Assembly: GCA_002069885.1 (NCBI GenBank)
Contig: MWCD01000004.1
Location: 11,037-75,036 of the forward strand
Length of the DNA: 64,000 nt
Direction of reading: 5' to 3'
Source of the DNA: a bacterium ADurb.Bin236
GTDB lineage: Bacteria; UBP15; UBA6099
Below the pieces are notes generated by a model. That model had not been told where the DNA came from, ran no database searches, and saw nothing but the letters and a program-made list of their open reading frames with translations. Positions 4,892-24,563 of this stretch are shown here, one piece after another. Both the position numbers and the translations under genes were made by a program. Position 1 is the stretch's first letter; every line of letters starts with the position of its first letter.

Positions 4892-7198
4892 TTACAGGAG
4901 CGGATGCTCGGACATCGCTTTAATCCTCTGCCATCTTCGCTCTACTTCCGCCTCGAAGGATTTCAATTCATTTTCGAACGCTGGTTTGGCGAGATGTTTC
5001 GTCTTGCCCATCATCTTGAGCCAGTCCAACGCGGGAATGCGCTTGTTTTTCTCTTCGGGGTCGTAAGTGAGAGTGGTGACACCGTTTTCTATTTCGTAAA
5101 GCGGGAAGAAGCAGCAGTCGACGCCGGCCTGAATAATCTCGCGGCATTTGTTTTCGGGTATGCGCCAGTTGAGCGGGCAGGCTGAGAAGATTTTTCCGTA
5201 AACGAAGCCGTGTTCTCGGGCCATGTACTGAGCCTTGGCGGCTTTGCGGGTCAGGTCAAGATGGTTGCACTCCGCGCCTGTGAAGACATAAGGGATGTGG
5301 CAAGCGTTCATAATCTGCACGGTGTCTTTGTGGTGAGTCTTCTTGCCGTGCTGAGCCGGGCCGACGTGGCTGGTGGTGGTCTCGTGTCCCAGAGGGGTGG
5401 AAAAAGACAACTGGTGTCCGGTGTTCATGTAACCGCCGTTGTCGTATTCGAGGCAAATCATGTTGTTGTTGCGCAGCGCGGAGCCGATGGTCGGCCCCAT
5501 GCCGATGTCGTTGCCGCCGTCGCCTGTGACCATAATAAAAGTGATGTCAAGGTCGGAAGGCAGTTCGCCCCGCCGTTTTTTCTCGTGGTACATCTCGACG
5601 ATTCCAGCGACTGTGGGGGCGCCGTTCTGGAAAAGGTTGTGGACGTAAGTCTGCCTGTGGGCGCTGTTGGGATATCCGGTTCCGATAATCATGCCGCAGC
5701 CGGTATGGAACAGAGTGACGACCGGGCCTTCGATGCCTCTCATAAAGAGGTTGAGGGAGGGGATGATGCCGCAGCCGGGGCAGGCTCCGTGTCCGGGGGC
5801 CAGCCGTTTCGGCATGCGGGTCAGTTCTCTTGAGTTGACCCCTTTAACCTGAAGCTTCCCGGTTTCGGGGTCGGGAGAGACGCTGATGATGCCGGGGGTG
5901 AGAGCCGCAATGTCCAGAGGGGGAGCGACGAGTTCGGGTTTGAAGCCGGTCTCGCCCTCAAAAGCGCCGACATATTCATAGGGCTTGGCAACTTTTCCGG
6001 TCTGCGCCGCTTCCAGAGCTTCGTTCAGCAGTTTCACGGCGTCGCTGATGTAGAACTCCAGACCGCCGAGGCCGTAAATACGCGAGAAGATGAGAGATTT
6101 GTTTTCGGGGTCGTCCTTGAGAGCGGCCTTTATTTCAATTGTCATCATGCCGCCCCATCCGCCGAATGTGTCCTGCCTGTCGGCGACGCATATCGCTTTG
6201 CAGTTTTTGAAGACAGCCTGAATCTCTCTAATCGGGAACGGGCGTATAACGTTGGCTGTGACAAGCCCGACTTTTTTGCCTTCGGAGCGAAGGCCGTCTA
6301 TGGCCGCGCGGGCGGTGCTGCTGGAACTGTTCAACATGAACAGAGCGGCTTCCGCGTCTTCCATCCTGTAGGTGGTGACAAGCTCATATTTGCGTCCGCT
6401 TATCGCCGCGTATTCCTCGAATATTTTGGGTATCACATCGTACGCGCGAATCATCGCGTCGCTCTGCTGTTTTCTGTTGTTGATCAAATCGTCGTTCATG
6501 TACGGGCCGACGGTTATCGGGTTAGTCGGATCGAGCAGGTCGTAGTCGGGTTTGAACGGGCCGATGAATTCGCGCACGGCCTCGTCGTTCTTAAACACGC
6601 GCACTCTGCGCTTCTGGTGGCTGGTGAAAAAGCCATCCTGCGAAACGATGACGGGGAGACGCACATCGGGATGCTCGCCGACGCGGACTGCGCAGATGTT
6701 CATATCGTAAACGGCCTGCGGGTCCGGAGCCATGAGAATAACCCATCCGATGTTGAGACAGGATGCGAGGTCAGAATGGTCTCCGCGGATGTTAAGCGGG
6801 CCGCTGACGGCGCGGTTCACAAGGTTCAGCACCATAGGCAGGCGGGTTCCGCTCTGAACGGGGAGTTGCTCAAGGGCAAAAAGAAGGCCTTGCGCGGAAG
6901 TGGCGTTGAACACGCGGCCTCCGGCTGCGGCGGCTCCGAAACATATCCCGGCGGCCCCGTGCTCTCCGTCGCCCGGAACCATGTTTATGGTGTTGTAGCC
7001 GTTCGCTTTCAGGCGGTCCATCTCTTCGGGTATCTGAGTCGAAGGCGTGATGGGATAGTAGCCCATCACGTGGTAGTTTATCTGCGACGCGGCCGCGGCG
7101 GCCATCTCGTTGCCGCTGTCCACCACGCTTATCTGTTCGTACTTTTCGGAAGCTTCGTTTTTCATCGCTCCGGAAGCCATTGTTGTTATTCCTCCCAA
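4892..7198 (-). CDS. 2-oxoacid (pyruvate-type):ferredoxin oxidoreductase, fused alpha (N) + beta (TPP-binding, C) subunits
   Basis: The N-terminal half is a POR alpha domain. The C-terminal half carries CPGCG and the TPP motif GDGG...NGGYMNTG. Confidence 0.9.
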   Translation of the reverse strand: MGGITTMASGAMKNEASEKYEQISVVDSGNEMAAAAASQINYHVMGYYPITPSTQIPEEMDRLKANGYNTINMVPGDGEHGAAGICFGAAAAGGRVFNATSAQGLLFALEQLPVQSGTRLPMVLNLVNRAVSGPLNIRGDHSDLASCLNIGWVILMAPDPQAVYDMNICAVRVGEHPDVRLPVIVSQDGFFTSHQKRRVRVFKNDEAVREFIGPFKPDYDLLDPTNPITVGPYMNDDLINNRKQQSDAMIRAYDVIPKIFEEYAAISGRKYELVTTYRMEDAEAALFMLNSSSSTARAAIDGLRSEGKKVGLVTANVIRPFPIREIQAVFKNCKAICVADRQDTFGGWGGMMTIEIKAALKDDPENKSLIFSRIYGLGGLEFYISDAVKLLNEALEAAQTGKVAKPYEYVGAFEGETGFKPELVAPPLDIAALTPGIISVSPDPETGKLQVKGVNSRELTRMPKRLAPGHGACPGCGIIPSLNLFMRGIEGPVVTLFHTGCGMIIGTGYPNSAHRQTYVHNLFQNGAPTVAGIVEMYHEKKRRGELPSDLDITFIMVTGDGGNDIGMGPTIGSALRNNNMICLEYDNGGYMNTGHQLSFSTPLGHETTTSHVGPAQHGKKTHHKDTVQIMNACHIPYVFTGAECNHLDLTRKAAKAQYMAREHGFVYGKIFSACPLNWRIPENKCREIIQAGVDCCFFPLYEIENGVTTLTYDPEEKNKRIPALDWLKMMGKTKHLAKPAFENELKSFEAEVERRWQRIKAMSEHPLL

Positions 7199-7248
7199 AT
7201 TATGTTCGCGCGCTCGGCGCGCTTAGGCGTTTCGCTCGGCGGCTCAAA

Positions 7249-8274
7249 TCACTCCGCCGCCTCTCTGGCTGACGTGAGAGCCTGCTTCGGACACACTTCT
7301 ACGCATCGCAGGCACCCTTTGCAGTGCATGTAATCGATATGATCGAAGAACTGCCTTTCTTTTCCCTTGTCGTCGGTTTTGCGGGAGAAGATGATGCACT
7401 GATCCGGGCAAGCTGTGTCGCACTCGGCGCAGTTGATGCACTTCGATTCGTCCCAAACGGGTTTGAACCCTGTGCGGGAAGCGGTCAAATCGTTCAACAC
7501 TGTGTTGCCGGGGTTGACGATGACGCCGCCGATGGGCGCGTTCTTCCATCCCAGTTTCGGCTGGAACTGCTTGAACTCTGAAATCGGATATTTATCGTCC
7601 GCCGGGACTTCATAGAGCGCCGCTTCGTCGTAGCCCCGCTTGAATCCTTTTATGTTAGGCTCGACAAGCGCCGGATACTTCTTTTCAAACATGCGTCTTA
7701 TGCCCGCTTCGAGCGCGTCCTTGTCAAGAAATTCCACCGCTCTGGATATCGCGCCGATAATTACGGTGTTTATCCTGACTTTCTCTTCGACGGCGATCTT
7801 CATGGCGTCTACGCAGTACAGCGTGACGCCGCCGGGGATTTTCAACAGGTCTCTGGTTTCTTCTGGAGATTTCGTGGTGTTTACCACTATCTGAGCGCCG
7901 GGCTTAATCCCGTTCATAATCGGCACGCTCTTGACCAGCACGGGAGCAAAGACGACCAGAAGATGCGGTTCAGTGACAGGGCTGTTGATGCGTATCTCCT
8001 TGTCGCTCTCGGCGAGCCTGATGTAGGCGCGGACGGGAGTGCCTTTTTTCTCCGAACCGTAACTGGCGAAACTAATGCCGTTAAGGCCCATGTCCATAAT
8101 GGCGGCGTCGGCGAGAATCTTGCCGGCAAGGTTGGCCCCCTGCCCTCCTATACTCTCCATGCGGATTTCATAATTGCCGAACTGGTTCTTCTTCGTGATG
8201 ACTTCCTTAGCTGTGTCAGTAGTCAAGTCCACCACCCCTTCGATGTTGAATGTTCCGGGATAAAACCGCGTCAT
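7249..8274 (-). CDS. 2-oxoacid:ferredoxin oxidoreductase, fused gamma (N) + delta (2x[4Fe-4S] ferredoxin, C) subunits
   Basis: The gamma-domain motif is GGQG. The C-terminus has CINCAECDTACP and CKGCLRCVEVCP. The gene is adjacent and co-directional with the alpha-beta gene. Confidence 0.9.
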   Translation of the reverse strand: MTRFYPGTFNIEGVVDLTTDTAKEVITKKNQFGNYEIRMESIGGQGANLAGKILADAAIMDMGLNGISFASYGSEKKGTPVRAYIRLAESDKEIRINSPVTEPHLLVVFAPVLVKSVPIMNGIKPGAQIVVNTTKSPEETRDLLKIPGGVTLYCVDAMKIAVEEKVRINTVIIGAISRAVEFLDKDALEAGIRRMFEKKYPALVEPNIKGFKRGYDEAALYEVPADDKYPISEFKQFQPKLGWKNAPIGGVIVNPGNTVLNDLTASRTGFKPVWDESKCINCAECDTACPDQCIIFSRKTDDKGKERQFFDHIDYMHCKGCLRCVEVCPKQALTSAREAAE

Positions 8275-10673: not shown

Positions 10674-10805
10674 GCAAAGTTGACCCTGTCTTAAAATATT
10701 AGGTCGCGCCTACCTTCGCGCGACCCCGAATAATATACATCATCGTTGGTTTTTTTTCATCAATTCCGCGTTCCGCGGCGTTCACGGTCTATAATTTCGA
10801 TTATG

Positions 10806-12155
10806 AGCGAACCGAAAGTGATATTGAGGCGCTGCGAGACCGCCGACCCGGCGAGAATCAGAGCCATCATAGCGGAGTGTTTTGAAGAACTACAGTTTCA
10901 GCCGCGCGGGCGCACCCTCATCAAACCCAACGTCGTCACCGCAAACAGGCAATACATACATCACTCGCACACTCACCCGGCGGTGACGGAAGCTCTAGCT
11001 CATCACCTGAAAACCCGACCCGAAGTATCGCAGATTACCATCGGCGAATCCTCCGGCTTCGGCATACCCCCCGGCCTTTTCATGCATGAGGCAGGTTACG
11101 ACGCGCTCGCGCGGCGGCTCAAAGTGCGACTTGTCGATTTCAACGAGGACCGCGCGACTTGGGTGGACTTGAAGAAAGCCGTCGCCCAGAAAGGATTCCA
11201 CGTCCCCCGCTCCATCCTCGAAGCCGACACGAAAATATGGGTCCCGAAACTGAAATATCATATCTGTTGCGAATTGACGAACGCGCTGAAGCTCAACATA
11301 GGAATACTCCAGCACCGCGACCGGATGGCTGTGCACGACAACCGGCTCAACGACAAGATAGTGGATATGCTGGAAATCGGATATCCGGACTGCGTCGTAA
11401 CGGACGCGATACACATCGGGCACGGGTTCGAGAGCGCGCCTCAGGGGTTCCATCTCGGCCTGCTGCTGGTGTCAAACAATCCACTCGCCGCGGACGCTGT
11501 CGCAGGCTCCGCCCTCGGTTATAAGCCCGAAGAAATCGTTCATCTGCGCATCGCGCGCGACAGAGGCTACGGCTCCATTGACCTCAACGACATCCGGATT
11601 ACTGGCGACTATCCGCTGGATGAAATCATATCCAAGACAAAGGGGCTGACAAGCGAATATCAGGACATACTAGCGGTGGACACGCCGATAAAGTTTTATT
11701 GCGGAGACGCGCCGGAACACGAGCCGGAGAACGCTCCCTCGCCGAACTGTTCGCCGTCCGTGCGCAGGGAGTCCGACAGCGAGAACTTCTGTTACGGCGG
11801 CTGCCTCGCGGCTGTCAAAGGATGCCTCGGCACGATAGACAAAAGACGTCCCGGCTCAGTGGCGCGCGCCCGCCCCGGCGCTGTCGTCACCGGCATCTAC
11901 AAAGGCGACGTCATACATCCCGGCCAGACGGCTTTTCTCATCGGCGACTGTTCCCGCGTTGACGGCAGGCTCGAAGCGAAACGCGTCATCAGGCTCACCG
12001 GATGCCCCATCGGGGCCTCCAAGCTGCTGATAAAAATGCCGAGCGTATTCAAGATGCCATCCCCTATGAGCGACGCGCGCTCCGCAGTCCAGTTCATCTA
12101 CTTCACCCTCCGCCACGCCCTCAGAAAACTCGTCCTCAAAATCATCCCCGGCTGA
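10806..12155 (+). CDS. DUF362 domain protein with a Cys-rich C-terminal region. The track ORF starts at 10746; the Met at 10806 is the likelier start. Its last ~40 codons are repeated at 20008-20144.
   Basis: LIKPNVVTA...ITIGESSG is the DUF362 signature. The C-terminus has several CxxC motifs. The tail ...SAVQFIYFTLRHALRKLVLKIIPG* is shared with the remnant at 19989-20117. Confidence 0.6.
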   Translation, partial: SEPKVILRRCETADPARIRAIIAECFEELQFQPRGRTLIKPNVVTANRQYIHHSHTHPAVTEALAHHLKTRPEVSQITIGESSGFGIPPGLFMHEAGYDALARRLKVRLVDFNEDRATWVDLKKAVAQKGFHVPRSILEADTKIWVPKLKYHICCELTNALKLNIGILQHRDRMAVHDNRLNDKIVDMLEIGYPDCVVTDAIHIGHGFESAPQGFHLGLLLVSNNPLAADAVAGSALGYKPEEIVHLRIARDRGYGSIDLNDIRITGDYPLDEIISKTKGLTSEYQDILAVDTPIKFYCGDAPEHEPENAPSPNCSPSVRRESDSENFCYGGCLAAVKGCLGTIDKRRPGSVARARPGAVVTGIYKGDVIHPGQTAFLIGDCSRVDGRLEAKRVIRLTGCPIGASKLLIKMPSVFKMPSPMSDARSAVQFIYFTLRHALRKLVLKIIPG

Positions 12156-12661: not shown

Positions 12662-13861
12662 TCACAGCAGAGCCATGCCTTTGATGGTCATTATCTCATT
12701 TGTGGCGTCCATGATTTGAAGCAGTTTGGCGTCGCGCATGTATTTCTCCAAGTTGTATTCTTTGGAGATGCCGTAGCCGCCGAGTATCTGCACCATTTCG
12801 ACGGTGTGCTTCATGGCAAGGTTGGTGGCGAAGACGCGGGCGGCGGCGGAAAGTTTTAGGTCGCCCATAAATTTGTTGGCGAGCGTCCAAGACGCTTTCC
12901 AGAGGAGTCCGCGCGCGGCTTCTATTGCCTGATACGCCTCGAATAGCCTGAAACCTATCGCCTGGTGCTGGAAGATCGGTTTGCCGAACTGCACTCGCTC
13001 TTTGGCGTACTGCAACGCTTCTTCATACGCGGCGCGCATCAGCCCGACGGCCAGATATCCGACGCCGATGTTGCCGACTGTCTTTATCGCATTGTGGATG
13101 GTGGGATAGCCGTCTCCGGGCGGCATAATCATGTTGCCCTCCGGGATTCGCGCGCCGTCGAAGCATACTTCGCCCTGATTCAACGCTCTCATGCCCAGCT
13201 TGTCCATAGATTTGCCGCGTTCGACGCCCTGCCCCAGCGGAACCAGAAAAACGCCAGAGCCTTTTATCCCCTTTGACTGGTCGACGCAAGCAAAAACAAG
13301 AAATAAATCGGCTATGCTGCCGTTGCTGACGAAGCTGGATTTTGCTCCGGTGATGATGTATTCGGAGCCTTCTTTTTTCGCGGATGTTTCGTGATGGACG
13401 CACGGGTCGTAGTAGTTGCTGCCGTCTGAGCCGATGTTGCCTTCGGAGCTGCCCCATGCCGATATGTGCTCGGCTTTGGTGTCATCGCAGTAAGGGACGA
13501 CATGTTTTTCGATGAGTTCTTTTTTGCCGCCGGCGAGAACGCTGAGGAACGCGGGGGCGACCATTCCGGCGAGCAGAGTGGCGGGAATGCCCACGCCGCC
13601 GACAGCGAGTTCTTCCCAGACCAGCGCGGTGCTAAGCGGGTCAAGTCCAAGCCCGCCGTGCTGGACGTTTATCGTCATCTTATGGAATCCCAACTCGTAA
13701 GCCTGTCTTAAAGTGTTCCTGAATTCAGGGCTGGCGTATGCCTCGTCAGGATTCTGCATTTTATCTATGGCAAGCTCGGCGGGCCTTATCACCTCGCGGG
13801 CGAACTTCTTCGCCATCTTCTGCAACTCAAGCTGTTCCTGCGTCGGTTTGAAATCGATCAT
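12662..13861 (-). CDS. Acyl-CoA dehydrogenase
   Basis: The ACAD fold motifs are ...GSDGSNYY..., ...YEEALQYAKERVQFGKPI..., and a C-terminal ...IMDATNEIM... Confidence 0.9.
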   Translation of the reverse strand: MIDFKPTQEQLELQKMAKKFAREVIRPAELAIDKMQNPDEAYASPEFRNTLRQAYELGFHKMTINVQHGGLGLDPLSTALVWEELAVGGVGIPATLLAGMVAPAFLSVLAGGKKELIEKHVVPYCDDTKAEHISAWGSSEGNIGSDGSNYYDPCVHHETSAKKEGSEYIITGAKSSFVSNGSIADLFLVFACVDQSKGIKGSGVFLVPLGQGVERGKSMDKLGMRALNQGEVCFDGARIPEGNMIMPPGDGYPTIHNAIKTVGNIGVGYLAVGLMRAAYEEALQYAKERVQFGKPIFQHQAIGFRLFEAYQAIEAARGLLWKASWTLANKFMGDLKLSAAARVFATNLAMKHTVEMVQILGGYGISKEYNLEKYMRDAKLLQIMDATNEIMTIKGMALL

Positions 13862-14628
13862 TTCTCGAACCCCCAGTCAGTTCTTGCGAACGAGTAAGGA
13901 AGGAAAACGTCCGGGTCCGCTTCTCCGACCACTTCGCCGGGGTGCATGATGGTGTCGCTCGTGAAGAAGTAGGCAGCCACCGGGCGCTTGCAGACAATTT
14001 CGCTCCATGAGTCGTGCGCGGACGGCTCGAATGTGATTTTGCCCATGCCCATCTCGAAAGAATGATAGACGATTTCCGTGCGTTGCCTGACGAGAAGAAT
14101 CGGGCCGTCGAAGCCGGGTTTCAGGTCGGCGCGGGGCATGAACTTGAAAAGGAAACTGGGGCCGACTTTGAGTGGCGGCTCGGCCATTTTGACGGCCAGT
14201 TCCGCCCTGATGGTCGCAAATCGAACGCCCCTGCGCTCGACGGTTCCTTCGACCACTTTGCCGTCGCGGTTCAGAGTTATCTTTGCGGTTTTCTTCGGAA
14301 ATCCGTAGATTTCGCGTCCGTTGAAAATCCGGTCGTCGTCGCCGTCGAGGGGCATGGACAGGCAGTAGTTGCCGACCTCTCCCTTATATTGACACCTGAT
14401 GAAAAGAGCGCATTCCCTGTATCCCGGCCCGAGGTTCGTGTCAGGAAAGTTCGAGATGTAGGAAAGCGCCCACGGCTCTGCCGCAGGTTCCAGCGGCGGC
14501 GGCAGCAGTTTCGCGATAATGTCCGGCTCCGTCTCATACATGATGCCGAGCATCTGCGCTCCGTCGAACCTCCTCGTTGCGAATCCATAATAATTGTCAA
14601 TTTCCTCTTTGCTTCTGATGAACCCCAT
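13858..14628 (-). CDS. Acetoacetate decarboxylase (ADC) family protein. The track ORF has a spurious Arg-rich N-extension; the real start is the Met at 14628, preceded by AGGAGG.
   Basis: MGFIRSKEEIDNYYGF...YRECALFIRCQYKG...GREIYGFPKK resembles the ADC family, and a perfect RBS (GAGGAGG) lies 8 nt upstream. Confidence 0.7.
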   Translation of the reverse strand: MGFIRSKEEIDNYYGFATRRFDGAQMLGIMYETEPDIIAKLLPPPLEPAAEPWALSYISNFPDTNLGPGYRECALFIRCQYKGEVGNYCLSMPLDGDDDRIFNGREIYGFPKKTAKITLNRDGKVVEGTVERRGVRFATIRAELAVKMAEPPLKVGPSFLFKFMPRADLKPGFDGPILLVRQRTEIVYHSFEMGMGKITFEPSAHDSWSEIVCKRPVAAYFFTSDTIMHPGEVVGEADPDVFLPYSFARTDWGFEK

Positions 14629-14705: not shown

Positions 14706-17279
14706 TTAAGCAATATACTGCTCGGTGCGAGCAATCACCTCGTCCTGAATCTCCCTGCCGAGTTCTGTGAAATAAGCGCTGTATCCGCCGACTTTCACTA
14801 TAAGGTCGCGGTGCGCGTCCGGGTCTTGCTGGGCCTCGCGCATGGTTTCGGAAGACACGACGGTGGGCTGCAACTGAGCGCCGCCCATCCTGAAATATGC
14901 GCGTATGAGCGCGGCCCATTTCTTCCTCGCTTCTTGCGTTCCGCCGACGGCGGAGGGATGAAACTTCATGTTCACCGCCGCGCCTAGTATCTGCGTAAAA
15001 TCAAGCGAGGCGACCGACCGCATAGCCGCAGTCACGCCATTCTTTTCGACGTTGTATGGATTGCAGCTCGCGGCGTACGGGGTCGCTGCGCGGCGTCCGT
15101 CGGGCGTGGCTATGGACAACCTGCCGTCTATCGTGTGAGTGGTCATGCTTATCACGTAAGGAACGAAAACCCCGCCCCGGCTGGTACTGTATTTGTAAGT
15201 TTCATCGAACATCGCGTTCGTCACCCGCCGCGCCAACTCGTCCGTTTCCGCGAATCCATTCCCCCATTTTCCTTCAATTCCGGCTATCTCGCGCCGCAGG
15301 TCCTCGAGTCCGGCATAGTTCACGTTTATCGCCTCGATTATTTCGCGGAGCGCGAACTTGCGTTTTTCGAAAACGAGCTTTTTGATCACTAAAAGAGAGT
15401 CGGAAACATTTGCAATGCTGTTAATGAAGGAAATGCCGCTGAGGTCGTACAGAGCGCCGCCTTTGACGACGTCCCTGCCCTTTTCCGCGCATCCCTGCAT
15501 GAACGCCGAGATCAGAGGAGCGGGAAGCATGTCAGCAAAGACATCGTCCTTGATATTCGACGCGTCGGCGATGAGTTTTATCTGATGCCGGGCCTGCTTG
15601 AGAAAAGCCTCCTCGAAACTCTCGTAAGAGTCGAACGATTCCGGCTCGCCGGTCTTGAGTCCGACGTTTTTGATAAGGCCCATCATGGTGAGCGAGTTGC
15701 CGTTGCGCAAAGTGAGGTCGAGCAGACGGGAAAGAAGAAGAGCCGAGGCGCTCATGCCGCCGGTCTTGCCCGGACACAGCATCTCGACGCAACCCATTAC
15801 GGCGTAGTCGCGGGCGTCCTCGTCTGAGAACCCTCGCCTCCGCATCGACTCGACATTGATATCGTCGTTGAAAAGAGAAATGTTCGAGCCGCCCGTGAAA
15901 ACCGCTTCCGCAGCGGCAGGAAGCAGGTCTTCAGGAGAATCCTTGTGCACGCGGAGAGAAACGTTGGTCACCGCTTTGGCTCTCGCGGCCGCTTCCAAGA
16001 ACAGATAAGTCAATTCGTTCGTGCCGTCCGTCCCATCGGGTTTCACCCCGCCCACTGTGACAGGCGATGAACCGAGGAACCGGTGATAGAAATTGCTCAG
16101 CATGTTCGATTCCGGACGTATGTTTTGGGACATGATTTTGAGCAAAAGCTCTTCGAGCGCCGCGCGCGCTTCGTCCCGCGTTATTATTCCGTCCTCGATG
16201 TCTTTTTTGTAATAAGGATAGAATATCTGGTCCATCCTTCCGAAGCTGTGAAGGTTGACCGGATGAGCAAGCTCCACCGCCGTCTTGACCGTCCACGCCG
16301 CCTGAACAGCCTGCATGAAAGTCTCCGACGGCATCAAGGGAGCGGTTTTGCAGTTTTCCAATGCGGCGCGAAGAGCGACTCTGCATTCCGGGACAAGTTC
16401 GTCTTCGAGCGCGGCTTTAACGGCGTCTGCCAGCCTGCGCGCGAAAACAATGGCGCCGTCTAGAGCCATTTCAACAGAGCGATGGAAAGCCCGCGTTTCA
16501 TCGTCCGCCGCAGCCGCGATCCTTTGCGCGGCCTCTTCCTTCATCTTTAAAAGCCCTTTTTTCACTACCGTGTCGAAATCAATTATCACGTGCCCCTGAT
16601 AAGAGGATATCGTCGAGCAGATCGACACCATCATTGTCTGCCGGGAGGTGATAGTTGGCAGCGCGAGACTGAATTCCCGCATGTCTTCGCCGAGCAGCCC
16701 AGACGACATCAACCGACGGTCTACCTCTTCGACGACCGTTTTTCCTTCCCAGAAAGGAAGAAGCTCGTTGACGAGAACTTTTCTGTCTTCCGGATCAATC
16801 ACATATCTATTTATTTCGCGCTCGTCCATCGTTTTTATTTCAAGGTTCATGGGCTGCTGCCCGGCGGCTCGGGACGCTTTCATATTTCGCGCGAAATCCC
16901 GCAGGCCGCGTTTGCCGACAAGATACGAAAGAGCGCCGCCTAGAGACTTGAATCTGAATCTCATTATCGATCCGCGCGCAAGCTCGGTTTTAAAAACCCC
17001 GTTGAACACGCCCCGCTCAATGTCGATGGGGATGCCCATGAAATCTTCCGTCCAATATCCCGCGATAAGGTCTTCCGGCTCGACATGCATGTCCATGTTT
17101 TCATACACGTTCTTCATAGCGAGAGCCACGCGCTCGCCGGCGGTCAGTCCGGAACCTTCCGTCTTCTTCCAGCTTTCGGTGTAATACTTAGCGCGCTGAA
17201 TTGAAATCTTCGGAGTCTCCAGAATATACCTGTCGCGCAACTCGGCAATCCGGTTTTTGTTTTTCTCAATAGTCAGCAT
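14706..17279 (-). CDS. Glycyl radical enzyme of the PFL2 / glycerol-dehydratase-like clade (858 aa from the Met at 17279)
   Basis: The C-terminal glycyl-radical loop is ...LIVKVGGYSAYFTELGREIQDEVIARTE, the Cys loop is GCVE (AVMGCVEMLCPGKTGG), and the N-terminal region is GRE-like. An RBS (GAGGGGGA) precedes the start. Confidence 0.85.
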   Translation of the reverse strand: MLTIEKNKNRIAELRDRYILETPKISIQRAKYYTESWKKTEGSGLTAGERVALAMKNVYENMDMHVEPEDLIAGYWTEDFMGIPIDIERGVFNGVFKTELARGSIMRFRFKSLGGALSYLVGKRGLRDFARNMKASRAAGQQPMNLEIKTMDEREINRYVIDPEDRKVLVNELLPFWEGKTVVEEVDRRLMSSGLLGEDMREFSLALPTITSRQTMMVSICSTISSYQGHVIIDFDTVVKKGLLKMKEEAAQRIAAAADDETRAFHRSVEMALDGAIVFARRLADAVKAALEDELVPECRVALRAALENCKTAPLMPSETFMQAVQAAWTVKTAVELAHPVNLHSFGRMDQIFYPYYKKDIEDGIITRDEARAALEELLLKIMSQNIRPESNMLSNFYHRFLGSSPVTVGGVKPDGTDGTNELTYLFLEAAARAKAVTNVSLRVHKDSPEDLLPAAAEAVFTGGSNISLFNDDINVESMRRRGFSDEDARDYAVMGCVEMLCPGKTGGMSASALLLSRLLDLTLRNGNSLTMMGLIKNVGLKTGEPESFDSYESFEEAFLKQARHQIKLIADASNIKDDVFADMLPAPLISAFMQGCAEKGRDVVKGGALYDLSGISFINSIANVSDSLLVIKKLVFEKRKFALREIIEAINVNYAGLEDLRREIAGIEGKWGNGFAETDELARRVTNAMFDETYKYSTSRGGVFVPYVISMTTHTIDGRLSIATPDGRRAATPYAASCNPYNVEKNGVTAAMRSVASLDFTQILGAAVNMKFHPSAVGGTQEARKKWAALIRAYFRMGGAQLQPTVVSSETMREAQQDPDAHRDLIVKVGGYSAYFTELGREIQDEVIARTEQYIA

Positions 17280-17306
17280 TGTTAGTCCCCCTCGCACGGT
17301 CGCGCT

Positions 17307-17972
17307 TCAACCGTCCAGAACCGACGCGTCCGCGAACCTGTCCAGCATCGCGTCCACCACCATCCTGACATGCTCCCTGCGTTCGGCCAGCGCGCTCTTC
17401 GCCAGAGGATCGCCTTTCCACAGCAACTCAAGCGCGGGCGCGTATGTGTAGTAATTTATCGCCAACCCGAACAGAGTGACGAAAAAATGTCTGGGGGCAA
17501 CCGCTCCGCCGCCGGGCAGCAAAGCTCCGAACGCGACCTCTCCCCACCTCTGCAACGGCTCCATGTATTGCGCTATTTTCTCCAGACTCTGCGACCTCGA
17601 ACATATCTCTCTCTGAATCAGCCGCGCATAACCGGGATTCAACTCCACGAAATCCAGATACGCTTCCATTCCGGCGTGAACCTTCTGCCTCGCAGTCCCT
17701 CCCGCGGTCAATGCGCCTATCAACGCCTGCGCCTGCGCCTTGTAGTAAACGTCCAGCACGTTGTCAAATAGGTTCTTTTTGCTTTCGAAATAATAGAATA
17801 CGAGAGCTTTCGCGACTCCCGCCTTCTCCGCAATGTCGTTTACGCTCACTCCGTCATGCCCGCGTTCGATAAACAACTCCTCCGCCGCCCTGAAAATCTT
17901 TTCTCTGGCGTCCGGCTCGGACACCTTCGTTTCATTTTCGGTAACGACGTCTTTTTTTGTTAATGTGTTCAT
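17307..17972 (-). CDS. TetR family transcriptional regulator (the real start is the Met at 17972; the track ORF runs into its own operator region)
   Basis: The HTH is ...REKIFRAAEELFIERGHDGVSVNDIAEKAGVAKALVFYYFESKK. Confidence 0.85.
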   Translation of the reverse strand: MNTLTKKDVVTENETKVSEPDAREKIFRAAEELFIERGHDGVSVNDIAEKAGVAKALVFYYFESKKNLFDNVLDVYYKAQAQALIGALTAGGTARQKVHAGMEAYLDFVELNPGYARLIQREICSRSQSLEKIAQYMEPLQRWGEVAFGALLPGGGAVAPRHFFVTLFGLAINYYTYAPALELLWKGDPLAKSALAERREHVRMVVDAMLDRFADASVLDG

Positions 17973-18024
17973 CTTAATCACCGCCGCCGCCACAGTTATC
18001 TCACAGTTTTTATTTGCGAACGTC

Positions 18025-18070
18025 TTGACCGAACGGTCAACTCCTGTCATTATATTAACCGAGCGGTCAA
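18025..18070. promoter_or_regulatory. Two palindromic operator sites in the divergent tetR / epimerase intergenic region
   Basis: TTGACCGAACGGTCAA (18025-18040) is a perfect 16-bp palindrome, and TTAACCGAGCGGTCAA (18055-18070) is a near-perfect one. The centres are 30 bp apart. Confidence 0.5.
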
Positions 18071-18149
18071 AGACTGTCAAGACATCTCGCCGAATTTAAC
18101 CAGATTTTTACAAATGCAGGTAAAAAAGGTTAGACCGGCGGCAGAGAGG

Positions 18150-19175
18150 ATGAACAACATGAAAGCGCTTGTCACTGGAGCCGATGGGCTTCTTGGAGGA
18201 AATCTCATCAGGGAAATGATAGAAAGAGGAATCGAAGCGCGGGCGATTGTGCATCCGAAAAGCGTCTCGCGCACTCTCGACGGTCTTCCGATAGAACGGA
18301 TAACCGGAGATATCCTTGATGCCGCCGGGCTGGAGGAAGCGGCGAAGGGATGCGAGGCGGTGTACCATGTCGCGGCGTCCACCGCCCTGTGGCCGCCCAA
18401 AGCTCCGATAATCACCGCCGTGAACGTGGAAGGCACGCGGAATATGCTGGACGCGGCGGTAAAAGCGGGCGTTAAGAGGTTCGTCCATGTCGGTTCCGCC
18501 AGTTCATTCGGATATGGAACAAAGGAGAGGCCCGGAGACGAGTCGACTCCTTTTAAATACGCTGATTTCGGCCTAGCCTATTTTGATTCCAAGCTGGAAG
18601 CGCAAAGAATCGCGTTGAAGCACGCCGCCGACGGCAAGCTGGACGTTGTGGTGGTGAATCCGACATTTATGATAGGCCCGTTCGATTCCGGCCCGAGTTC
18701 TGGAAAAATGATATCAAGGTTTGCCGATATGAGGCCGCCGTTCTACCCGCCGGGAGGCCGCAACTTCATACACGCGCGCGACGCGGCAAAAGGAATGCTG
18801 GCGGCGTGCGAGCGGGGGCGGACCGGGGAATGTTACCTGCTGGGCAACAGGAACATGGATATGAAGGAGTTTTTTAGCGAGGTCGCGCGCGTGGCGGGAT
18901 TCAAGCCACCCGCGATTGAGATTCCCAAAGAGATAATGATGATCGCCGGGGCCGCCGGATCGGCTATTAGCAATGTTACCGGAAAGCAGCCTGAACTATC
19001 CTATGAAATGGCCCGCAGTTCGTGTGTCGGCGCGTATTATAGCGCCGCGAAGGCGGTCAAAGAGCTTGCCCTGCCGCAGACGCCGATAGAGACGGCGGTG
19101 GAGGAAGCGTACGAATGGCTCGCCGAAAACGGGCACATCAAGAGCGCGCGAGGTCGCGCCGGAAAGAGGCGATGA
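18150..19175 (+). CDS. NAD-dependent epimerase/dehydratase (extended SDR) family protein
   Basis: MKALVTGADGLLGGNLIREM is the Rossmann GxxGxxG motif, and the catalytic YxxxK lies in ...YFDSKLEAQ... Confidence 0.8.
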   Translation: MNNMKALVTGADGLLGGNLIREMIERGIEARAIVHPKSVSRTLDGLPIERITGDILDAAGLEEAAKGCEAVYHVAASTALWPPKAPIITAVNVEGTRNMLDAAVKAGVKRFVHVGSASSFGYGTKERPGDESTPFKYADFGLAYFDSKLEAQRIALKHAADGKLDVVVVNPTFMIGPFDSGPSSGKMISRFADMRPPFYPPGGRNFIHARDAAKGMLAACERGRTGECYLLGNRNMDMKEFFSEVARVAGFKPPAIEIPKEIMMIAGAAGSAISNVTGKQPELSYEMARSSCVGAYYSAAKAVKELALPQTPIETAVEEAYEWLAENGHIKSARGRAGKRR

Positions 19176-19993
19176 GCATGGCCGCTAAACATTTCGAGAA
19201 CAAGACCGCTCTCATAACCGGGGGCAGCCGGGGGATAGGGCTTGCGGTGGCGCGCGAACTGTCGCGCAGAGGCGCCCGCTGCGCCATCGCCGCTCGCGGA
19301 GCCGAGCACCTTGAACGCGCCCGCGCCTCTCTCGCGTCAGACGGTTTCGACGTCCTCACGATTCAAGCAGACGTCGCGGATGCGGCGTCTTGCGCCGACA
19401 TGGTCTCTCGCGCCGTCTCGGAGTTCGGGCGTCTGGACATCCTTGTGAACAACGCGGGCGTCTCTATGCGCGCCACTCTCGACGAACTCGACGCCGAAGC
19501 CTGCCGCTCGATGGTGGACATCAATCTGATGGGGTGCATATATCCGACGCTCAGCGCGCTCGATCAACTCAAGAGCAACAAAGGAAGCGTCGTCTTCACG
19601 TCCAGCATAGCGGGTCTGATAGGGTTGCCGACGGCGACGATATATTGCGCGACCAAGCACGCGCTTCGCGGATTTGCGGACGCGTTGAGATGCGAAATCG
19701 GGCCTTGCGGCGCGCATGTCGGCGTCGTCTATGTCGGTTTCACCGAGAACGACCCTGAGAAGAAAGTGGTCAGCGCAGACGGCGGAGCCGTCCCGCCCGG
19801 TCCGGCGCACATGACACAGGAGCAAGTGGCGCGCGAGTTCGCCGAGCTTATCCGCCACCGCCGCTCCCGCGCCGTGCTTTCGCCAATCGGCAAATTGGCC
19901 GAGCTGGCCGGCAGGCTGTCTCCGGACATTGTAGGCGACGCCATCGTCTTCAGCCGAAAAACCAAGCTCAACGAGCGCCTCGGCATAACTTGA
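19172..19993 (+). CDS. Classical short-chain dehydrogenase/reductase
   Basis: TALITGGSRGIGLAVA, NNAGV and YCATKHAL are the SDR motifs. There is a 4-bp ATGA overlap with the upstream gene. Confidence 0.85.
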   Translation: MSMAAKHFENKTALITGGSRGIGLAVARELSRRGARCAIAARGAEHLERARASLASDGFDVLTIQADVADAASCADMVSRAVSEFGRLDILVNNAGVSMRATLDELDAEACRSMVDINLMGCIYPTLSALDQLKSNKGSVVFTSSIAGLIGLPTATIYCATKHALRGFADALRCEIGPCGAHVGVVYVGFTENDPEKKVVSADGGAVPPGPAHMTQEQVAREFAELIRHRRSRAVLSPIGKLAELAGRLSPDIVGDAIVFSRKTKLNERLGIT

Positions 19994-20330: not shown

Positions 20331-20969
20331 CTATTCTTCAATGACATTGAAATTAAACGTCTTTTGCTCGTGTTCTTCTGCTGATGTCGGCTCAGCCTTG
20401 GCAATTTCATTATTTATTTCTTCCGGAATAATTCTTACAAGACCACTGATAAATACTCTGAAACTCCGAGATTTGTTAATTGAGGGATTCATGTGCTTCC
20501 CTATAGCTCGTGCGCCACTTATTTTCTGATAGTTCACAACAATTCGCTTTATTTCTTCCGCGGGTTGGTTAATGCTGTCCGGATTTCTGAATTTGGATTG
20601 ATTTTGTCTGCCTGATAAGTTCCCGATTCCCATTCCGGCTTCAACGGCCTTCAGGTCTCCAAGAAACCATGACTCAAGTTCATGACATACCACACGGACA
20701 AGAACATCTGATCTTCCACCTTCTTCACAAAGTCTTGTAAGGTTCGTTTTCACAACTTGGCAATCAGCTTGGTCCTGATCCCTCAGCACTATGAATCTGA
20801 CATCGTCCTCTCGCCACGCTCTCAGTTTTCTCGGAATCGATTTCTCAAGATCTTGTTTTCCTTCGTGAACAACATATATACAGTGAATTGACCTTGGAAC
20901 AACTCTTGGCAAAAAGCCCTTTAGAGCCTCCTTCATTGACTGTTCTTCGAGCAGAAATACAATCTTCAT
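20331..20969 (-). CDS. Small TOPRIM-like protein (DUF4276-like), candidate nuclease partner of the adjacent ATPase
   Basis: The N-terminus MKIVFLLEEQSMKEALKGFL is like the conserved-Glu region of DUF4276. An acidic DxD-type motif is VLRDQDQAD, followed by ELESWFLGD. There is a 4-bp ATGA overlap with the upstream ATPase gene, and GC content is low. Confidence 0.55.
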   Translation of the reverse strand: MKIVFLLEEQSMKEALKGFLPRVVPRSIHCIYVVHEGKQDLEKSIPRKLRAWREDDVRFIVLRDQDQADCQVVKTNLTRLCEEGGRSDVLVRVVCHELESWFLGDLKAVEAGMGIGNLSGRQNQSKFRNPDSINQPAEEIKRIVVNYQKISGARAIGKHMNPSINKSRSFRVFISGLVRIIPEEINNEIAKAEPTSAEEHEQKTFNFNVIEE

Positions 20970-22144
20970 AACTCGCTGTTTATCTCCTCAAATAGCCCCT
21001 GTTTCCATAGCGCTCCTGGCAACTCTCCTTCCGCAACTAGGTTTCTAAGCACTTCACTATCTCTAGCTCTTTGTAGAGTTGTAAATCCGTTCATTTTCCG
21101 AAGATAGAACACCTCATCTAGTCTCGTTCCATTCAGGAAATCTGGTGAATGCGTCGAAACAAACACTTGTCCGCCGCGTTCGGAATACTGCCTAAATTCT
21201 TCTGCTAATTCTTGGAGCAGTTGAGGATACAACTGGTTCTCCGGCTCTTCTACGCATAAGAGTGGGTGAGGTGATGGATCGTGTAATAGCACAAGATATG
21301 CAAACATTTTTATAGTCCCATCTGATACATACCGCGCAATGAAAGGATCTTTGAATGAGCCATCTTGGAAACGCAGCACTATTCTTCCATCAATCGTAGG
21401 CTGCGCTTCTACTTTGCTTACACCCGGCACTCTTTCTGCCATCTTCCTAAGCACTTCGTCAAATATATCTCGGTGCCGGTCATAAAGGAATTGAGAAACT
21501 AGCGCAAGGTTTTCTCCTCTTGCTGACAGATGCTCCGCATACCCTTCCTCGTGACTAGGCCGAGCTTCATGTATATGGAAATCCGAAACATGCCAGTTCT
21601 CGATTAACTTCCTGAAAGCCGTCACTACTTTGAAACGTTGAAATTGCCCAAGTCCTTTGATAGCAAGTATATCCGGCGACTCAAGCTCCTGAGGCTCACG
21701 TTGCATCTCGCTTTCAGGCATCTTGTAATCGTCCTCATTTGTTATTGCTTGGCCATGCCCCTTGCTGAATTCTAGAAACTTCCATGGTTGCCCGTGCTGG
21801 CCCCTTCTATACTTAAGAACTTCACTTGCGACCACCGGCCTGCCGGAATCCAGTCCTATCGATAAACTATATGTAACGAGAGGACCATTTACTTCACGAA
21901 ATTTAATTTCAAAACTGACTGGCCCTTCGGCATTACGACTTATCACCTCGTTGAATCCTCCACGCATAGCAAGAGCTTTGTCAACGTTGTGAGTAAGCGC
22001 ATCTCTCAAAAAACCGAACACATCGAACATCGTGCTCTTGCCTGTTCCGTTTGCTCCCACGAGAACACACATACTAGGGATGTCTGTCATATTAGCTTCT
22101 CGGAACACTCTATAGTTTCGTATACTTATTGATTCAATATGCAT
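20966..22144 (-). CDS. ABC/SMC-like AAA_21-type ATPase (OLD/AbiL/PARIS-AriA-like N-terminal ATPase without a fused nuclease)
   Basis: Walker A is VLVGANGTGKST, Walker B plus D-loop is LLCVEEPENQLYP, and the H-loop is VFVSTHSP. The gene is 392 aa and AT-rich relative to its surroundings. Confidence 0.85.
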   Translation of the reverse strand: MHIESISIRNYRVFREANMTDIPSMCVLVGANGTGKSTMFDVFGFLRDALTHNVDKALAMRGGFNEVISRNAEGPVSFEIKFREVNGPLVTYSLSIGLDSGRPVVASEVLKYRRGQHGQPWKFLEFSKGHGQAITNEDDYKMPESEMQREPQELESPDILAIKGLGQFQRFKVVTAFRKLIENWHVSDFHIHEARPSHEEGYAEHLSARGENLALVSQFLYDRHRDIFDEVLRKMAERVPGVSKVEAQPTIDGRIVLRFQDGSFKDPFIARYVSDGTIKMFAYLVLLHDPSPHPLLCVEEPENQLYPQLLQELAEEFRQYSERGGQVFVSTHSPDFLNGTRLDEVFYLRKMNGFTTLQRARDSEVLRNLVAEGELPGALWKQGLFEEINSEL

Positions 22145-23165: not shown

Positions 23166-24563
23166 TCAGTCCAGTTTAAGCTCTGCGGCGGTCATAATAA
23201 TCTTCGGAACGCGGGGAGCGGCGTCTCCGAAAAGAGCGTCCGCCACCGATTGGTCGAACGAGCGGTAGTTCAATTCCGCGCGCACGGTCACCGGCTTTTT
23301 CGCGTCGGCGGGAATAACGAACGCGAAGCTTTCGACGGCATGCCCCTTCGGCGGTATGGTTTTATTGTAGGCGAAATGTGAAATCTTCCACGGTTTCAGA
23401 GTGGGCTGACCGAAGTCGTCCACCGCAAGGCTGTTGAAAATAACGGCTTTAGAATCGATTGCGCCTTTTTCATCCACAGCGCCTGAGCTCCAGAATATTC
23501 TTCCAGCCGCGTCCTCCGCTCTGACATCCAGCCACATCTGCCTGAGTTCGGTAAGGCTGGTGGGGAGGTTGTGTCCCGCCGCGATATTTTCAACTTTCAC
23601 ATCAACAACAGTCAGTCCGGGGGAACGCGTCGCCGAAGCGGACAAGCTCATTCGAGCCGCCGCCTTTAATCTCTTTTCAGCAATCACGGCGCTCTTTTCC
23701 GAGCCGAGCAGCCGGGACATGACGAAATTGCCGCCGACGAATTCGTGCGTGTATATATGAGGCCTCTCGTCCGCGATCTCTGAAGCGTAGCCGGGATTGG
23801 GAACCCGCTTGAGAGTGGCCGCCACCTCGGGCAAGTTGTCTACTGGGGCCATGTGGCAGTCCTGACACACTATGCCGTTGCGGGCGTACACCGAATGCCG
23901 CCACTCGTCGTATGTGCGCTCAATTGGAAATCCGGTCGAGCCGTGAAAAACATTGTGGCAGTTGCCGCAGAATTCCGCGCTCGTGTGCAGTTGGGAATAA
24001 ACGCTGTCGTGGAAAGAAGCCTCGGAGTCGCCGAACGGGCCGCGTTTGATTTGTCCGGGGTCGATTGCCACAGCCATGTTGTGAGGCTCAAGCGCCCGCG
24101 TCTTCTGATAGTGCGTCGAGTCTATCGAGTGGCAATAGTCGCACTGTACGCCGTTGGCGGATATGTTGTCCAGATTCTCCATGTCCGCCGGAGCGACGAG
24201 CCTGTCAGTCATCATGCCGATCGGGGAATGGCAGCCGATGCACTCGGTTCCGATGGTCCCGCCGGTTTCTTCGAATGCCATTTTCCATTTCTTCTGCCAG
24301 ACGGGGTCTTTGAACGAATTGGCGTGCATGGAGCCTTCCCACTGCTCATGAATGCCCTGATGGCACGCGCCGCACGTCTCCGGCCCTGTAAAATCGTTTA
24401 CAGTGACCTGTCTGTCGCCGGTGATTTTTAAAAGGTTTGGAAAAAAACGGTATTCGCTGTTGTCGGAGCCGGTGGAGATGTTAGCACCCGCAAAAATGAG
24501 AGCCGCCGCGATTAACGCTGGAGCCGCCCAAATATATCTGCCGCGTGGTTTCATGTCAGACAC
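23166..24563 (-). CDS. Periplasmic multiheme c-type cytochrome with five CXXCH motifs
   Basis: There is a signal peptide and five heme motifs: CGACH, CIGCH, CDYCH, CGNCH and CQDCH. The C-terminal motif NIAAGHNLPT is typical of multiheme cytochrome families. Confidence 0.85.
   Translation of the reverse strand: MSDMKPRGRYIWAAPALIAAALIFAGANISTGSDNSEYRFFPNLLKITGDRQVTVNDFTGPETCGACHQGIHEQWEGSMHANSFKDPVWQKKWKMAFEETGGTIGTECIGCHSPIGMMTDRLVAPADMENLDNISANGVQCDYCHSIDSTHYQKTRALEPHNMAVAIDPGQIKRGPFGDSEASFHDSVYSQLHTSAEFCGNCHNVFHGSTGFPIERTYDEWRHSVYARNGIVCQDCHMAPVDNLPEVAATLKRVPNPGYASEIADERPHIYTHEFVGGNFVMSRLLGSEKSAVIAEKRLKAAARMSLSASATRSPGLTVVDVKVENIAAGHNLPTSLTELRQMWLDVRAEDAAGRIFWSSGAVDEKGAIDSKAVIFNSLAVDDFGQPTLKPWKISHFAYNKTIPPKGHAVESFAFVIPADAKKPVTVRAELNYRSFDQSVADALFGDAAPRVPKIIMTAAELKLD

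Follow-up and report, generated by a model that had tools for sequence, protein, structure and literature searches.

The 64,000-nucleotide stretch analysed here (the window; bacterium ADurb.Bin236, contig MWCD01000004.1, positions 11,037 to 75,036) encodes a glycyl radical enzyme (GRE) that, judged by its sequence, belongs to a distinct, well-delimited and widespread clade without a characterised member. We refer to it as the KVGGY clade, after its radical loop, and to the part of it that holds the window enzyme as sub-clade A. The gene is intact, selectively maintained and predicted to specify a functional enzyme, and it lies in a cassette with a TetR-family regulator, an acetoacetate decarboxylase (ADC)-family protein, an acyl-CoA dehydrogenase (ACAD)-family flavoprotein and two short-chain dehydrogenases/reductases (SDRs). 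The open reading frame (ORF; 14706..17279, minus strand) begins with an ATG (MLTIEKN...) and comprises 857 codons plus a stop. A preliminary description of this DNA had located the ORF correctly, although its length of 858 residues included the stop codon. Translation could alternatively start at a GTG in the same frame at 17297, which would lengthen the protein by six residues, to 863. The product is 100% identical to a database protein, P0001, from 'bacterium ADurb.Bin236'. Both hallmarks of the superfamily are present, a PFL-like barrel (PF02901, 8.2e-136) and a C-terminal glycyl radical domain (Gly_radical, PF01228, 5.4e-21), and an AlphaFold model built from an alignment of 60 diverse members (pLDDT 88.8, pTM 0.92) has the GRE fold, with TM-scores of 0.84-0.91 to solved GREs.

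The catalytic motifs are complete. The predicted thiyl cysteine and the glutamate that follows it lie in the loop G496-C497-V-E499 (15783..15794, minus strand), and the predicted radical site, Gly832, lies in the loop K829-V-G-G832-Y833 (14781..14795, minus strand) within the C-terminal sequence KVGGYSAYFTELGREIQDEVIARTEQYIA; the GCVE and KVGGY readings of the preliminary description were thus correct. Alignments to 5i2a and 6vxc additionally single out His230 (16590..16592, minus strand) as the predicted acid for the leaving group. Cys497 is invariant in 60 of 60 aligned sequences and in 238 of 238 clade members, and Gly832, His230 and more than 100 further columns are likewise invariant across the 60-sequence alignment. 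With both the cysteine and the glycine loop conserved, the protein is not an inactive paralogue. The alignments and the model also reveal a clade-specific N-terminal insertion of about 50 residues, with two helices at residues 102-138.

The enzyme stands apart from all characterised GREs. None of the NCBIfam equivalog models reaches its cut-off (scores are given as bits/cut-off): the PFL2-3 subfamily scores 500/678, HpsG 425/1000, HypD 415/1100, CutC (TIGR04394) 394/1050, HpfG 386/1000, IAD 310/1100, HPAD 256/1150 and PFL 86/994, which places the protein outside every named eliminase family. Its best solved relative by sequence is HypD (6vxc; 366 bits, 5e-108, 28% identity), with propanediol dehydratase (PD), CutC, HpsG and Archaeoglobus fulgidus PflD close behind and benzylsuccinate synthase (BSS), MASS and HPAD near 1e-50. 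The family is sharply delimited when 1.84 billion cluster representatives are searched exhaustively with HMMER: its own representatives reach 987 bits (52% identity) and 778 bits (42%), and the other full-length GREs at most 462 bits and 39%. These sub-threshold family scores, the 28% identity to HypD and the score gap uphold the earlier assignment to a PFL2-type GRE distinct from every characterised one. The closest relatives of the window enzyme come from metagenome-assembled genomes (MAGs) of candidate phylum UBP15, while the clade as a whole is found in many anaerobic bacteria of several phyla, from anoxic sediments and digesters, and is abundant in Asgard archaea.

The radical loop was at first described as non-canonical. 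A lysine does replace the usual arginine, but the loop is otherwise ordinary: set against the published GRE fingerprint RVxG[FWY]x6-8[FL]x4Qx2[IV]x2R (PMC13450708), the query (KVGGY-SAYFTE-L-GREI-Q-DE-V-IA-R) departs from it only by this R-to-K change, as glycine is permitted at x. The form KVGGYS is invariant in 238 of 238 clade members. Lysine-type loops also occur elsewhere, since among the 150 best cluster representatives the loop could be read in 115, 99 of which begin with Arg and 16 with Lys (KVGGY 6, KVAGY 5, KVSGY 4 and KVGGF 1). This distribution makes KVGGY a recurrent and conservative form of the loop and a useful marker of the clade, with KVGGYS as its diagnostic version, rather than a sign of unusual radical chemistry.

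When the sequence is aligned with those of solved GREs, the residues around the predicted radical path suggest that the enzyme catalyses a 1,2-elimination on a hydroxylated substrate. All characterised GRE 1,2-eliminases and isomerases keep a Cys-X-Glu (CXE) motif, the glutamate of which is bonded to the substrate hydroxyl, and in glycerol dehydratase (GD) His164 protonates the leaving hydroxyl (PMC13450708). The query has the first feature as C497-V-E499 and the second as His230, which aligns with His166 of PD and His160 of HypD at the position of GD His164. The top Foldseek matches to the model are GD, PD and HypD (TM 0.84/0.91), with BSS and AAD clearly lower. We infer from this combination, the CXE motif, the histidine and dehydratases as the closest structures, an elimination in the style of GD, PD and HypD. 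Gly832 would generate a thiyl radical on Cys497, which would abstract hydrogen from a hydroxyl-bearing carbon; Glu499 would deprotonate that hydroxyl, and His230 would protonate the vicinal leaving group, most likely a second hydroxyl, to leave a carbonyl product.

The pocket also differs from that of each eliminase with which it can be compared. GD (1r8w) and PD (5i2a/5i2g, 9rco) resemble the query in fold, CXE cysteine loop, histidine position and the use of a radical-SAM activase with a ferredoxin-like insert; however, they are only 27-28% identical to it. Where GD and PD have an Asp at Cys+14 the query has Ala511, its pocket strand reads Met-Ser-Ala-Ser-Ala, Asn342 and His344 are additional near-invariant residues, and the N-terminal insertion and the lysine of the radical loop set it further apart. 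Its genes form an ADC-ACAD-SDR cassette, unlike the microcompartment/aldehyde-dehydrogenase context of the dehydratases. HypD (6vxc), the best solved sequence match, shares the CXE motif and the histidine, but the query has Asn342 in place of HypD Asp278 and Ala513 in place of the Tyr at Cys+16, and there are no proline-metabolism genes in the cassette. The C-S and C-N eliminases (HpsG 6lon, IslA/IseG, CutC) have the CXE motif and overall fold in common with the query and match it at 341-342 bits. In HpsG the sulfonate is anchored by Arg183, Gln187 and Arg672 (PMC13450708), which in a hand-counted alignment stand opposite Gln228, His230 and Pro707, so that none of the three is kept. We had considered an organosulfonate substrate because TauE-family permeases recur in related loci and HpsG is the second-best NCBIfam model, and we rejected it on account of these three residues. 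Tyr208, Thr502 and Tyr506 of CutC, which we take, partly from mutant structure entries, to form its trimethylammonium pocket, align with His230, Ser510 and Leu514 (the last at Cys+17) and are likewise not kept. A carnitine- or choline-type substrate is disfavoured by these replacements and by the conserved histidine, which suits a hydroxyl leaving group better.

A CXE glutamate two residues after the cysteine is also found in HPAD, and P0001 is deposited as 'HPAD large subunit'. A GRE decarboxylase of the HPAD/PAD/IAD/AAD kind, acting on a carboxylic acid, need not have a second polypeptide, as AAD works without a small subunit. We nevertheless regard a decarboxylase as improbable. The HPAD and IAD scores given above are far from their cut-offs, the matches to HPAD (2y8n, 6.7e-52) and AAD (7e7l, 5e-79) fall below those to eliminases and rank lower by fold as well, and it would be surprising for one operon to encode a Schiff-base decarboxylase in addition. 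There are no aromatic-acid genes nearby and no HpdC-like gene adjacent to the GRE.

Gene content brings to mind a further reaction, the addition of a hydrocarbon to fumarate as in X-succinate synthases, with the ACAD and the SDRs then carrying out β-oxidation-like steps. One ACAD and two SDRs recall the bbs genes, and a paralogue of the window enzyme, P0240, is deposited as 'Benzylsuccinate synthase alpha subunit'. PflD-like GREs of Asgard archaea have been given Ass/Bss names in the same way, in a paper on Hermodarchaeota that relied on ~30% identity alone (PMC8163825). Against this, BSS (4pkc) and MASS (9o8u) score 183 and 175 bits compared with 366 for HypD, with a Foldseek E-value of 1e-38 and a TM-score of 0.78. 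The characterised benzylic/allylic enzymes are αβγ complexes, and the 27- and 77-nt gaps that flank the GRE gene admit no small subunits; genes for a CoA-transferase, a hydratase or a thiolase are missing from the cassette; and the pairing of CXE with a histidine is typical of eliminases. An X-succinate-synthase-like reaction is in our judgement very improbable, and neither of the two deposited names is backed by scores or motifs. The resemblance to X-succinate synthase and HPAD pathways that was drawn in the preliminary description is likewise not sustained, as sequence and fold lie nearer the C-O eliminases, small subunits have no room, and the sister sub-clade sits in sugar-catabolic loci.

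That sister group emerged from 72 genomic loci (numbered with the prefix L), which were fetched and probed with the window proteins and the activase of a relative. After redundancy was removed, 17 loci with 4 kb or more of flank on each side carry a sub-clade A enzyme (at least 55% identical to the query), and 14 loci a sub-clade B enzyme (46-54%). Sub-clade B, exemplified by P0240, shares with the query an identical radical loop, the N-terminal insertion, the conserved residues His230 (invariant in both groups), Asn342 and His344, and the same family of activase. It differs in the cysteine loop, which is GCVD in 117 of 117 members as opposed to GCVE in 117 of 121 members of sub-clade A, and in eleven positions that diverge systematically between the two (385, 399, 402, 438, 495, 499, 511, 617, 619, 706 and 708), most of them on or beside inner barrel strands. 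These differences fit different substrates for the two predicted pockets. An activase is adjacent in 12 of the 14 sub-clade B loci, compared with 6 of the 17 of sub-clade A, and the recurrent neighbours are of sugar type: an MFS_2 transporter, FGGY kinase, KDPG/KHG aldolase, DUF2804, a 2-hydroxyacid dehydrogenase and a cupin isomerase. None of the cassette genes (ADC, ACAD, SDR, TetR) is found beside the GRE in the 14 sub-clade B groups. Judged by this context, sub-clade B, which is found mostly in Asgard archaea, may provide an uncharacterised radical step for a pathway of sugars or sugar acids. Sub-clade B genes occur at L081:4289-8584, in L079 from the same genome lineage, and in the Asgard loci L028, L032 and L043, among others.

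The sugar-type neighbourhoods also bear on a GRE isomerase of the YbiW/PflD/HplG type, in which CXE-assisted formation of a ketyl radical would break a C-O or C-N bond and so open the ring of a substrate such as a cyclic ether or an anhydro-sugar-like compound, with no net elimination, the cassette then processing the keto compound. GRE isomerases keep the CXE motif and share the first steps with eliminases (PMC13450708). Besides the sub-clade B loci, with their MFS_2 transporter, FGGY kinase and KDPG/KHG aldolase, the Asgard sub-clade A loci have TrmB, a PfkB kinase and a KDPG aldolase nearby, which recalls YbiW and PflD, the products of which are passed to aldolases (PMC13450708). YbiW and PflD, however, rank lower than HypD, PD and GD by sequence (8id7 4e-79 and 8id0 6e-84, as opposed to 5e-108) and by fold, the bacterial cassette holds neither kinase nor aldolase, and the conserved His230 would be suited to protonate a hydroxyl as it leaves. 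We consider an isomerase unlikely, and we prefer the eliminase. A third related sub-clade, represented by P0253 (42% identity), has a KVGGF loop, QGN in place of QGH and a Cys-Ala-Asn cysteine loop. The presumed acid/base pair is thus lost jointly, with histidine replaced by asparagine and neither Glu nor Asp in the cysteine loop; we count this joint loss in favour of the eliminase roles proposed for the two residues in the window enzyme, and the third sub-clade itself may carry out a different chemistry.

Several loci hold more than one GRE. Tandem pairs lie at L086:7409-12607, L041:4748-10017 and L063:1365-6657, in a Promethearchaeota MAG and Dehalococcoidia MAGs; an activase follows directly downstream of the pair in L041 and L063, and none is found within 10 kb in L086. 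A distant second GRE lies about 3.5 kb upstream in L016 and L066.

No activating enzyme is encoded in the window. The CxxxCxxC motif occurs there in no plausible gene, its sole match being a 91-residue antisense ORF at 41956-42228, and a Radical_SAM domain was found in no large ORF of the 64 kb; the absence reported in the preliminary description is therefore confirmed. The label 'orphan', which it attached to the enzyme, suits the window but not the genome, as a GRE activase lies beside a paralogous GRE, and 11 of the 17 sub-clade A loci likewise have no adjacent activase. The paralogue is P0240, 48% identical to the window enzyme, which was found through a 90%-identity cluster and is also deposited from 'bacterium ADurb.Bin236'. 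Assembly GCA_029561055.1 carries both, the window GRE at 100% identity and without an activase (L003) and, elsewhere, P0240 (L081), so that the evidence consists of a sister assembly with an identical GRE and a shared organism name rather than a whole-genome census. In L081, P0240 is followed after 14 nt by a 309-residue Radical_SAM/ferredoxin-insert protein (L081:7655-8584), under a GntR regulator, and the homologue of this protein next to the GRE in L057 passes the NCBIfam GRE-activase model with 313 bits (cut-off 174).

Across the radical loop, 19 consecutive residues are the same in both GREs (IVKVGGYSAYFTELGREIQ), and known activase cross-reactivity is between GREs with conserved glycine loops (PMC13450708, section 2.5). 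Other UBP15 genomes with the window cassette also hold a sub-clade B paralogue and its activase (L055, L057, L064), and UBA6099, USMO_maxbin.112, USCA_metabat.19 and a Promethearchaeota MAG each combine a sub-clade A gene that has no activase with a sub-clade B gene that does. The UBP15 activase is about equally distant from activases beside sub-clade A GREs (42-49%) and sub-clade B GREs (45-56%). We infer that the activase at the paralogue locus is a candidate partner of the window GRE and would install the radical on Gly832 in trans. Within the window, a DUF362 protein (10746-12155, plus strand; 445-469 residues, with a cysteine-rich C-terminal part) is encoded convergently with the ACAD gene. 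We considered this Fe-S-like protein as an alternative activating partner and rejected it because it neighbours the cassette only in the UBP15 lineage.

A GRE gene with 64 kb around it free of any activase, when other phyla keep an activase directly downstream, could be taken for a non-functional relic that lost its activase and is now silent or decaying. We find this hardly credible. Comparison of the window with three related genomes, all without an adjacent activase, gives dN/dS values of 0.04-0.07 for the GRE, 0.03 for the ADC gene and 0.01-0.02 for the ACAD gene, which contradicts decay. Every catalytic motif is intact, as is the whole operon, in which ADC and ACAD are translationally coupled, and the genome does encode an activase, at another locus.

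All five neighbours named in the preliminary description proved to be as stated. The operon on the minus strand starts with the TetR-family regulator (17307..18080; TetR_N 3.6e-16), 27 nt upstream of the GRE; 77 nt beyond the GRE come the ADC-family protein (13858..14628; 256 residues; PF06314, 1.1e-51; lysine pair in GREIYGFPKK) and, overlapping it by 4 nt, the ACAD-family flavoprotein (12662..13861; 399 residues; Pfam ACAD N, M and C domains). On the plus strand, divergent from TetR, lie an extended SDR of the epimerase/3β-HSD type (18159..19175; Pfam; PDB 3wj7, 5e-54) and, overlapping its end, a classical SDR (19115..19993; adh_short 2.3e-50). A sigma-70-like site at 18080-18052 is a consensus match only; between 12000 and 20400, promoter-like sites are in weak excess (8, compared with 4.2 expected after shuffling) and terminators show no excess (11 compared with 11.2). 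An NCBI protein of 1132 residues, P0052, combines TetR_N with a full GRE and is either a real fusion or a gene call that reads through the 27-nt gap.

Both the 17 sub-clade A loci and the metagenomic loci indicate that this context is a cassette conserved across phyla rather than a chance neighbourhood, as the earlier reading of the gene context had assumed. Near the sub-clade A GRE we found the ADC in 12 loci, the extended SDR in 11, TetR in 8, the ACAD in 8 and an activase in 6. The conserved set comprises TetR, the GRE, in some cases the activase, a tightly linked ADC-ACAD pair and the two SDRs, which can be fused. It is kept in Myxococcota, Syntrophomonadaceae, UBP15 and other MAGs, and Myxococcota, Syntrophomonadaceae and an uncultured bacterium have it in full, with an activase gene immediately after that of the GRE. 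The two SDRs are fused into a protein of about 600 residues in L085 and into single ORFs of about 1.85 kb in L020, L024, L025, L067 and L069; Hydrogenedentota are among the loci with fused SDRs. The ADC is the most constant partner of the GRE, the archaeal loci included: Asgard sub-clade A loci keep it, sometimes immediately beside the GRE, and in them we found no ACAD, SDRs or activase. In addition to TrmB, PfkB and the KDPG aldolase, these loci contain a FAD_binding_4/CCG pair.

The ADC-family protein and the ACAD form a unit of their own. The closest solved relatives of the former are true acetoacetate decarboxylases (3c8w, 3bgt, 3bh2), to which it aligns end to end; its lysines K111 and K112 are invariant, and GREIYGFPKK aligns with GREIWGFPKK of 3c8w. 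On the NCBIfam ADC subfamily model it scores 75 bits against a cut-off of 150, so that specificity for acetoacetate is not established by this match. The closest solved relatives of the ACAD are butyryl-CoA dehydrogenases (4l1f, 5lnx, 1buc). The pair thus resembles acetoacetate decarboxylase and butyryl-CoA dehydrogenase in its lysine pair and its Bcd-type ACAD, but differs from them in its ~30% identity, in scores below the NCBIfam cut-offs for both proteins, in being a fixed, translationally coupled pair and in having no electron-transfer flavoprotein (ETF) nearby.

When metagenomes were scanned with the ADC alignment, 80 loci were retrieved. An ACAD follows the ADC in almost every locus with sufficient downstream sequence, which makes the two a fixed two-gene pair; we know of no earlier description of such a module. 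In about two dozen loci, several of them with a full 10 kb of flank, the pair occurs without a GRE in the fetched sequence, and its neighbours there are MFS_1, biotin carboxylase with a PYC_OADA carboxyltransferase, a family-III CoA-transferase, thiolase, AMP-ligase, SDR and TauE. The thiolase, CoA-transferase, AMP-ligase and SDR among them place the pair in short-chain β-keto-acid/acyl-CoA metabolism. In L103, L107, L108 and L109 (ADC match at ~10000) the ADC and ACAD often overlap and lie amid DctP, family-III CoA-transferase, biotin carboxylase, PYC_OADA, MFS, thiolase, SDR and TauE genes.

These observations allow a pathway to be proposed for sub-clade A. An eliminase leaves a carbonyl at the former hydroxyl carbon and an ADC needs a β-keto acid, so the simplest link between them is a β-hydroxy acid whose neighbouring carbon bears a leaving group, such as a 3,4- or 2,3-dihydroxy acid. 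Elimination would convert it to an acetoacetate-like β-keto acid, which would be decarboxylated or enter CoA-ester metabolism. Under the control of TetR, the cassette would process the GRE product, with the two SDRs interconverting hydroxy and keto forms and the ADC-family protein, as a Schiff-base β-keto-acid decarboxylase, and the Bcd-like ACAD acting in the same pathway; this pathway, drawn from gene context, is the weakest part of the explanation. The literature we searched holds no description of the KVGGY clade or its cassette, of a link between a GRE and an ADC, or of a β-keto-acid-forming GRE.

Taken as a whole, the explanation that combines activation in trans, eliminase chemistry and a pathway through the ADC cassette seems to us evenly poised between right and wrong. 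Its most specific part, that sub-clade A performs an undescribed radical 1,2-elimination of a β-hydroxy acid to a β-keto acid consumed by a dedicated ADC and its coupled flavoprotein, is a tentative proposal that we think clearly more doubtful than probable. Several points weigh against the combined explanation. The KVGGY clade has no characterised member, so eliminase activity is a prediction, and the CXE motif alone is no proof of elimination, given that the decarboxylase HPAD also has it (Glu505). With Ala511 at Cys+14 in place of the GD/PD Asp and a Met-Ser-Ala-Ser-Ala strand, the aligned active site is unlike that of any known dehydratase. The genome may encode another activase, and that of the paralogue is a candidate. 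Domain searches find neither a CoA ligase or transferase nor an ETF in the cassette, which leaves the role of the ACAD unexplained, and the TauE-family permeases that recur near ADC-ACAD are likewise not accounted for by the pathway. The extended SDR has as its best NCBIfam matches the lipid-type HpnA (284 bits), SdmB (165) and OleD (89), all below cut-off, and the best matches of TetR, both weak and a long way short of the cut-off, are RefZ and FasR, a regulator of fatty-acid metabolism; these matches could indicate a larger, hydrophobic substrate.

Other genes of the window lie outside the cassette. Beside it, in the lowest-GC stretch of the window (0.436), PADLOC marks a candidate HEC-01 defence system at 20331-22144 (minus strand), made up of an AAA_21 ATPase of 392 residues and a DUF4276 protein of 212 residues (632 and 239 bits); the two genes probably form a small defence island that was acquired. 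A strictly anaerobic lifestyle of the host would fit two further findings, a two-subunit 2-oxoacid:ferredoxin oxidoreductase at 4892-8274 and a multihaem cytochrome c at 23166-24563 (both minus strand).

The finding concerns enzyme discovery rather than a new biological principle. According to a 2026 review, whole GRE clades and all archaeal PFL-like GREs are without an experimentally established function (PMC13450708). Members of the KVGGY clade are mislabelled in databases as HPAD, benzylsuccinate synthase, PFL or HypD, and the 'hydrocarbon-activating' labels given to such MAG genes are not supported here, which calls for caution in annotation. As a target for discovery the clade offers clear limits, the KVGGYS marker, CXE and CXD sub-clades with distinct contexts, a seven-gene cassette and a candidate activase. 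If the β-keto-acid route is true, it would constitute a new anaerobic catabolic route, widespread in bacteria of sediments and digesters and in Asgard archaea, and would provide the first functional assignment for an archaeal PFL-like GRE clade.

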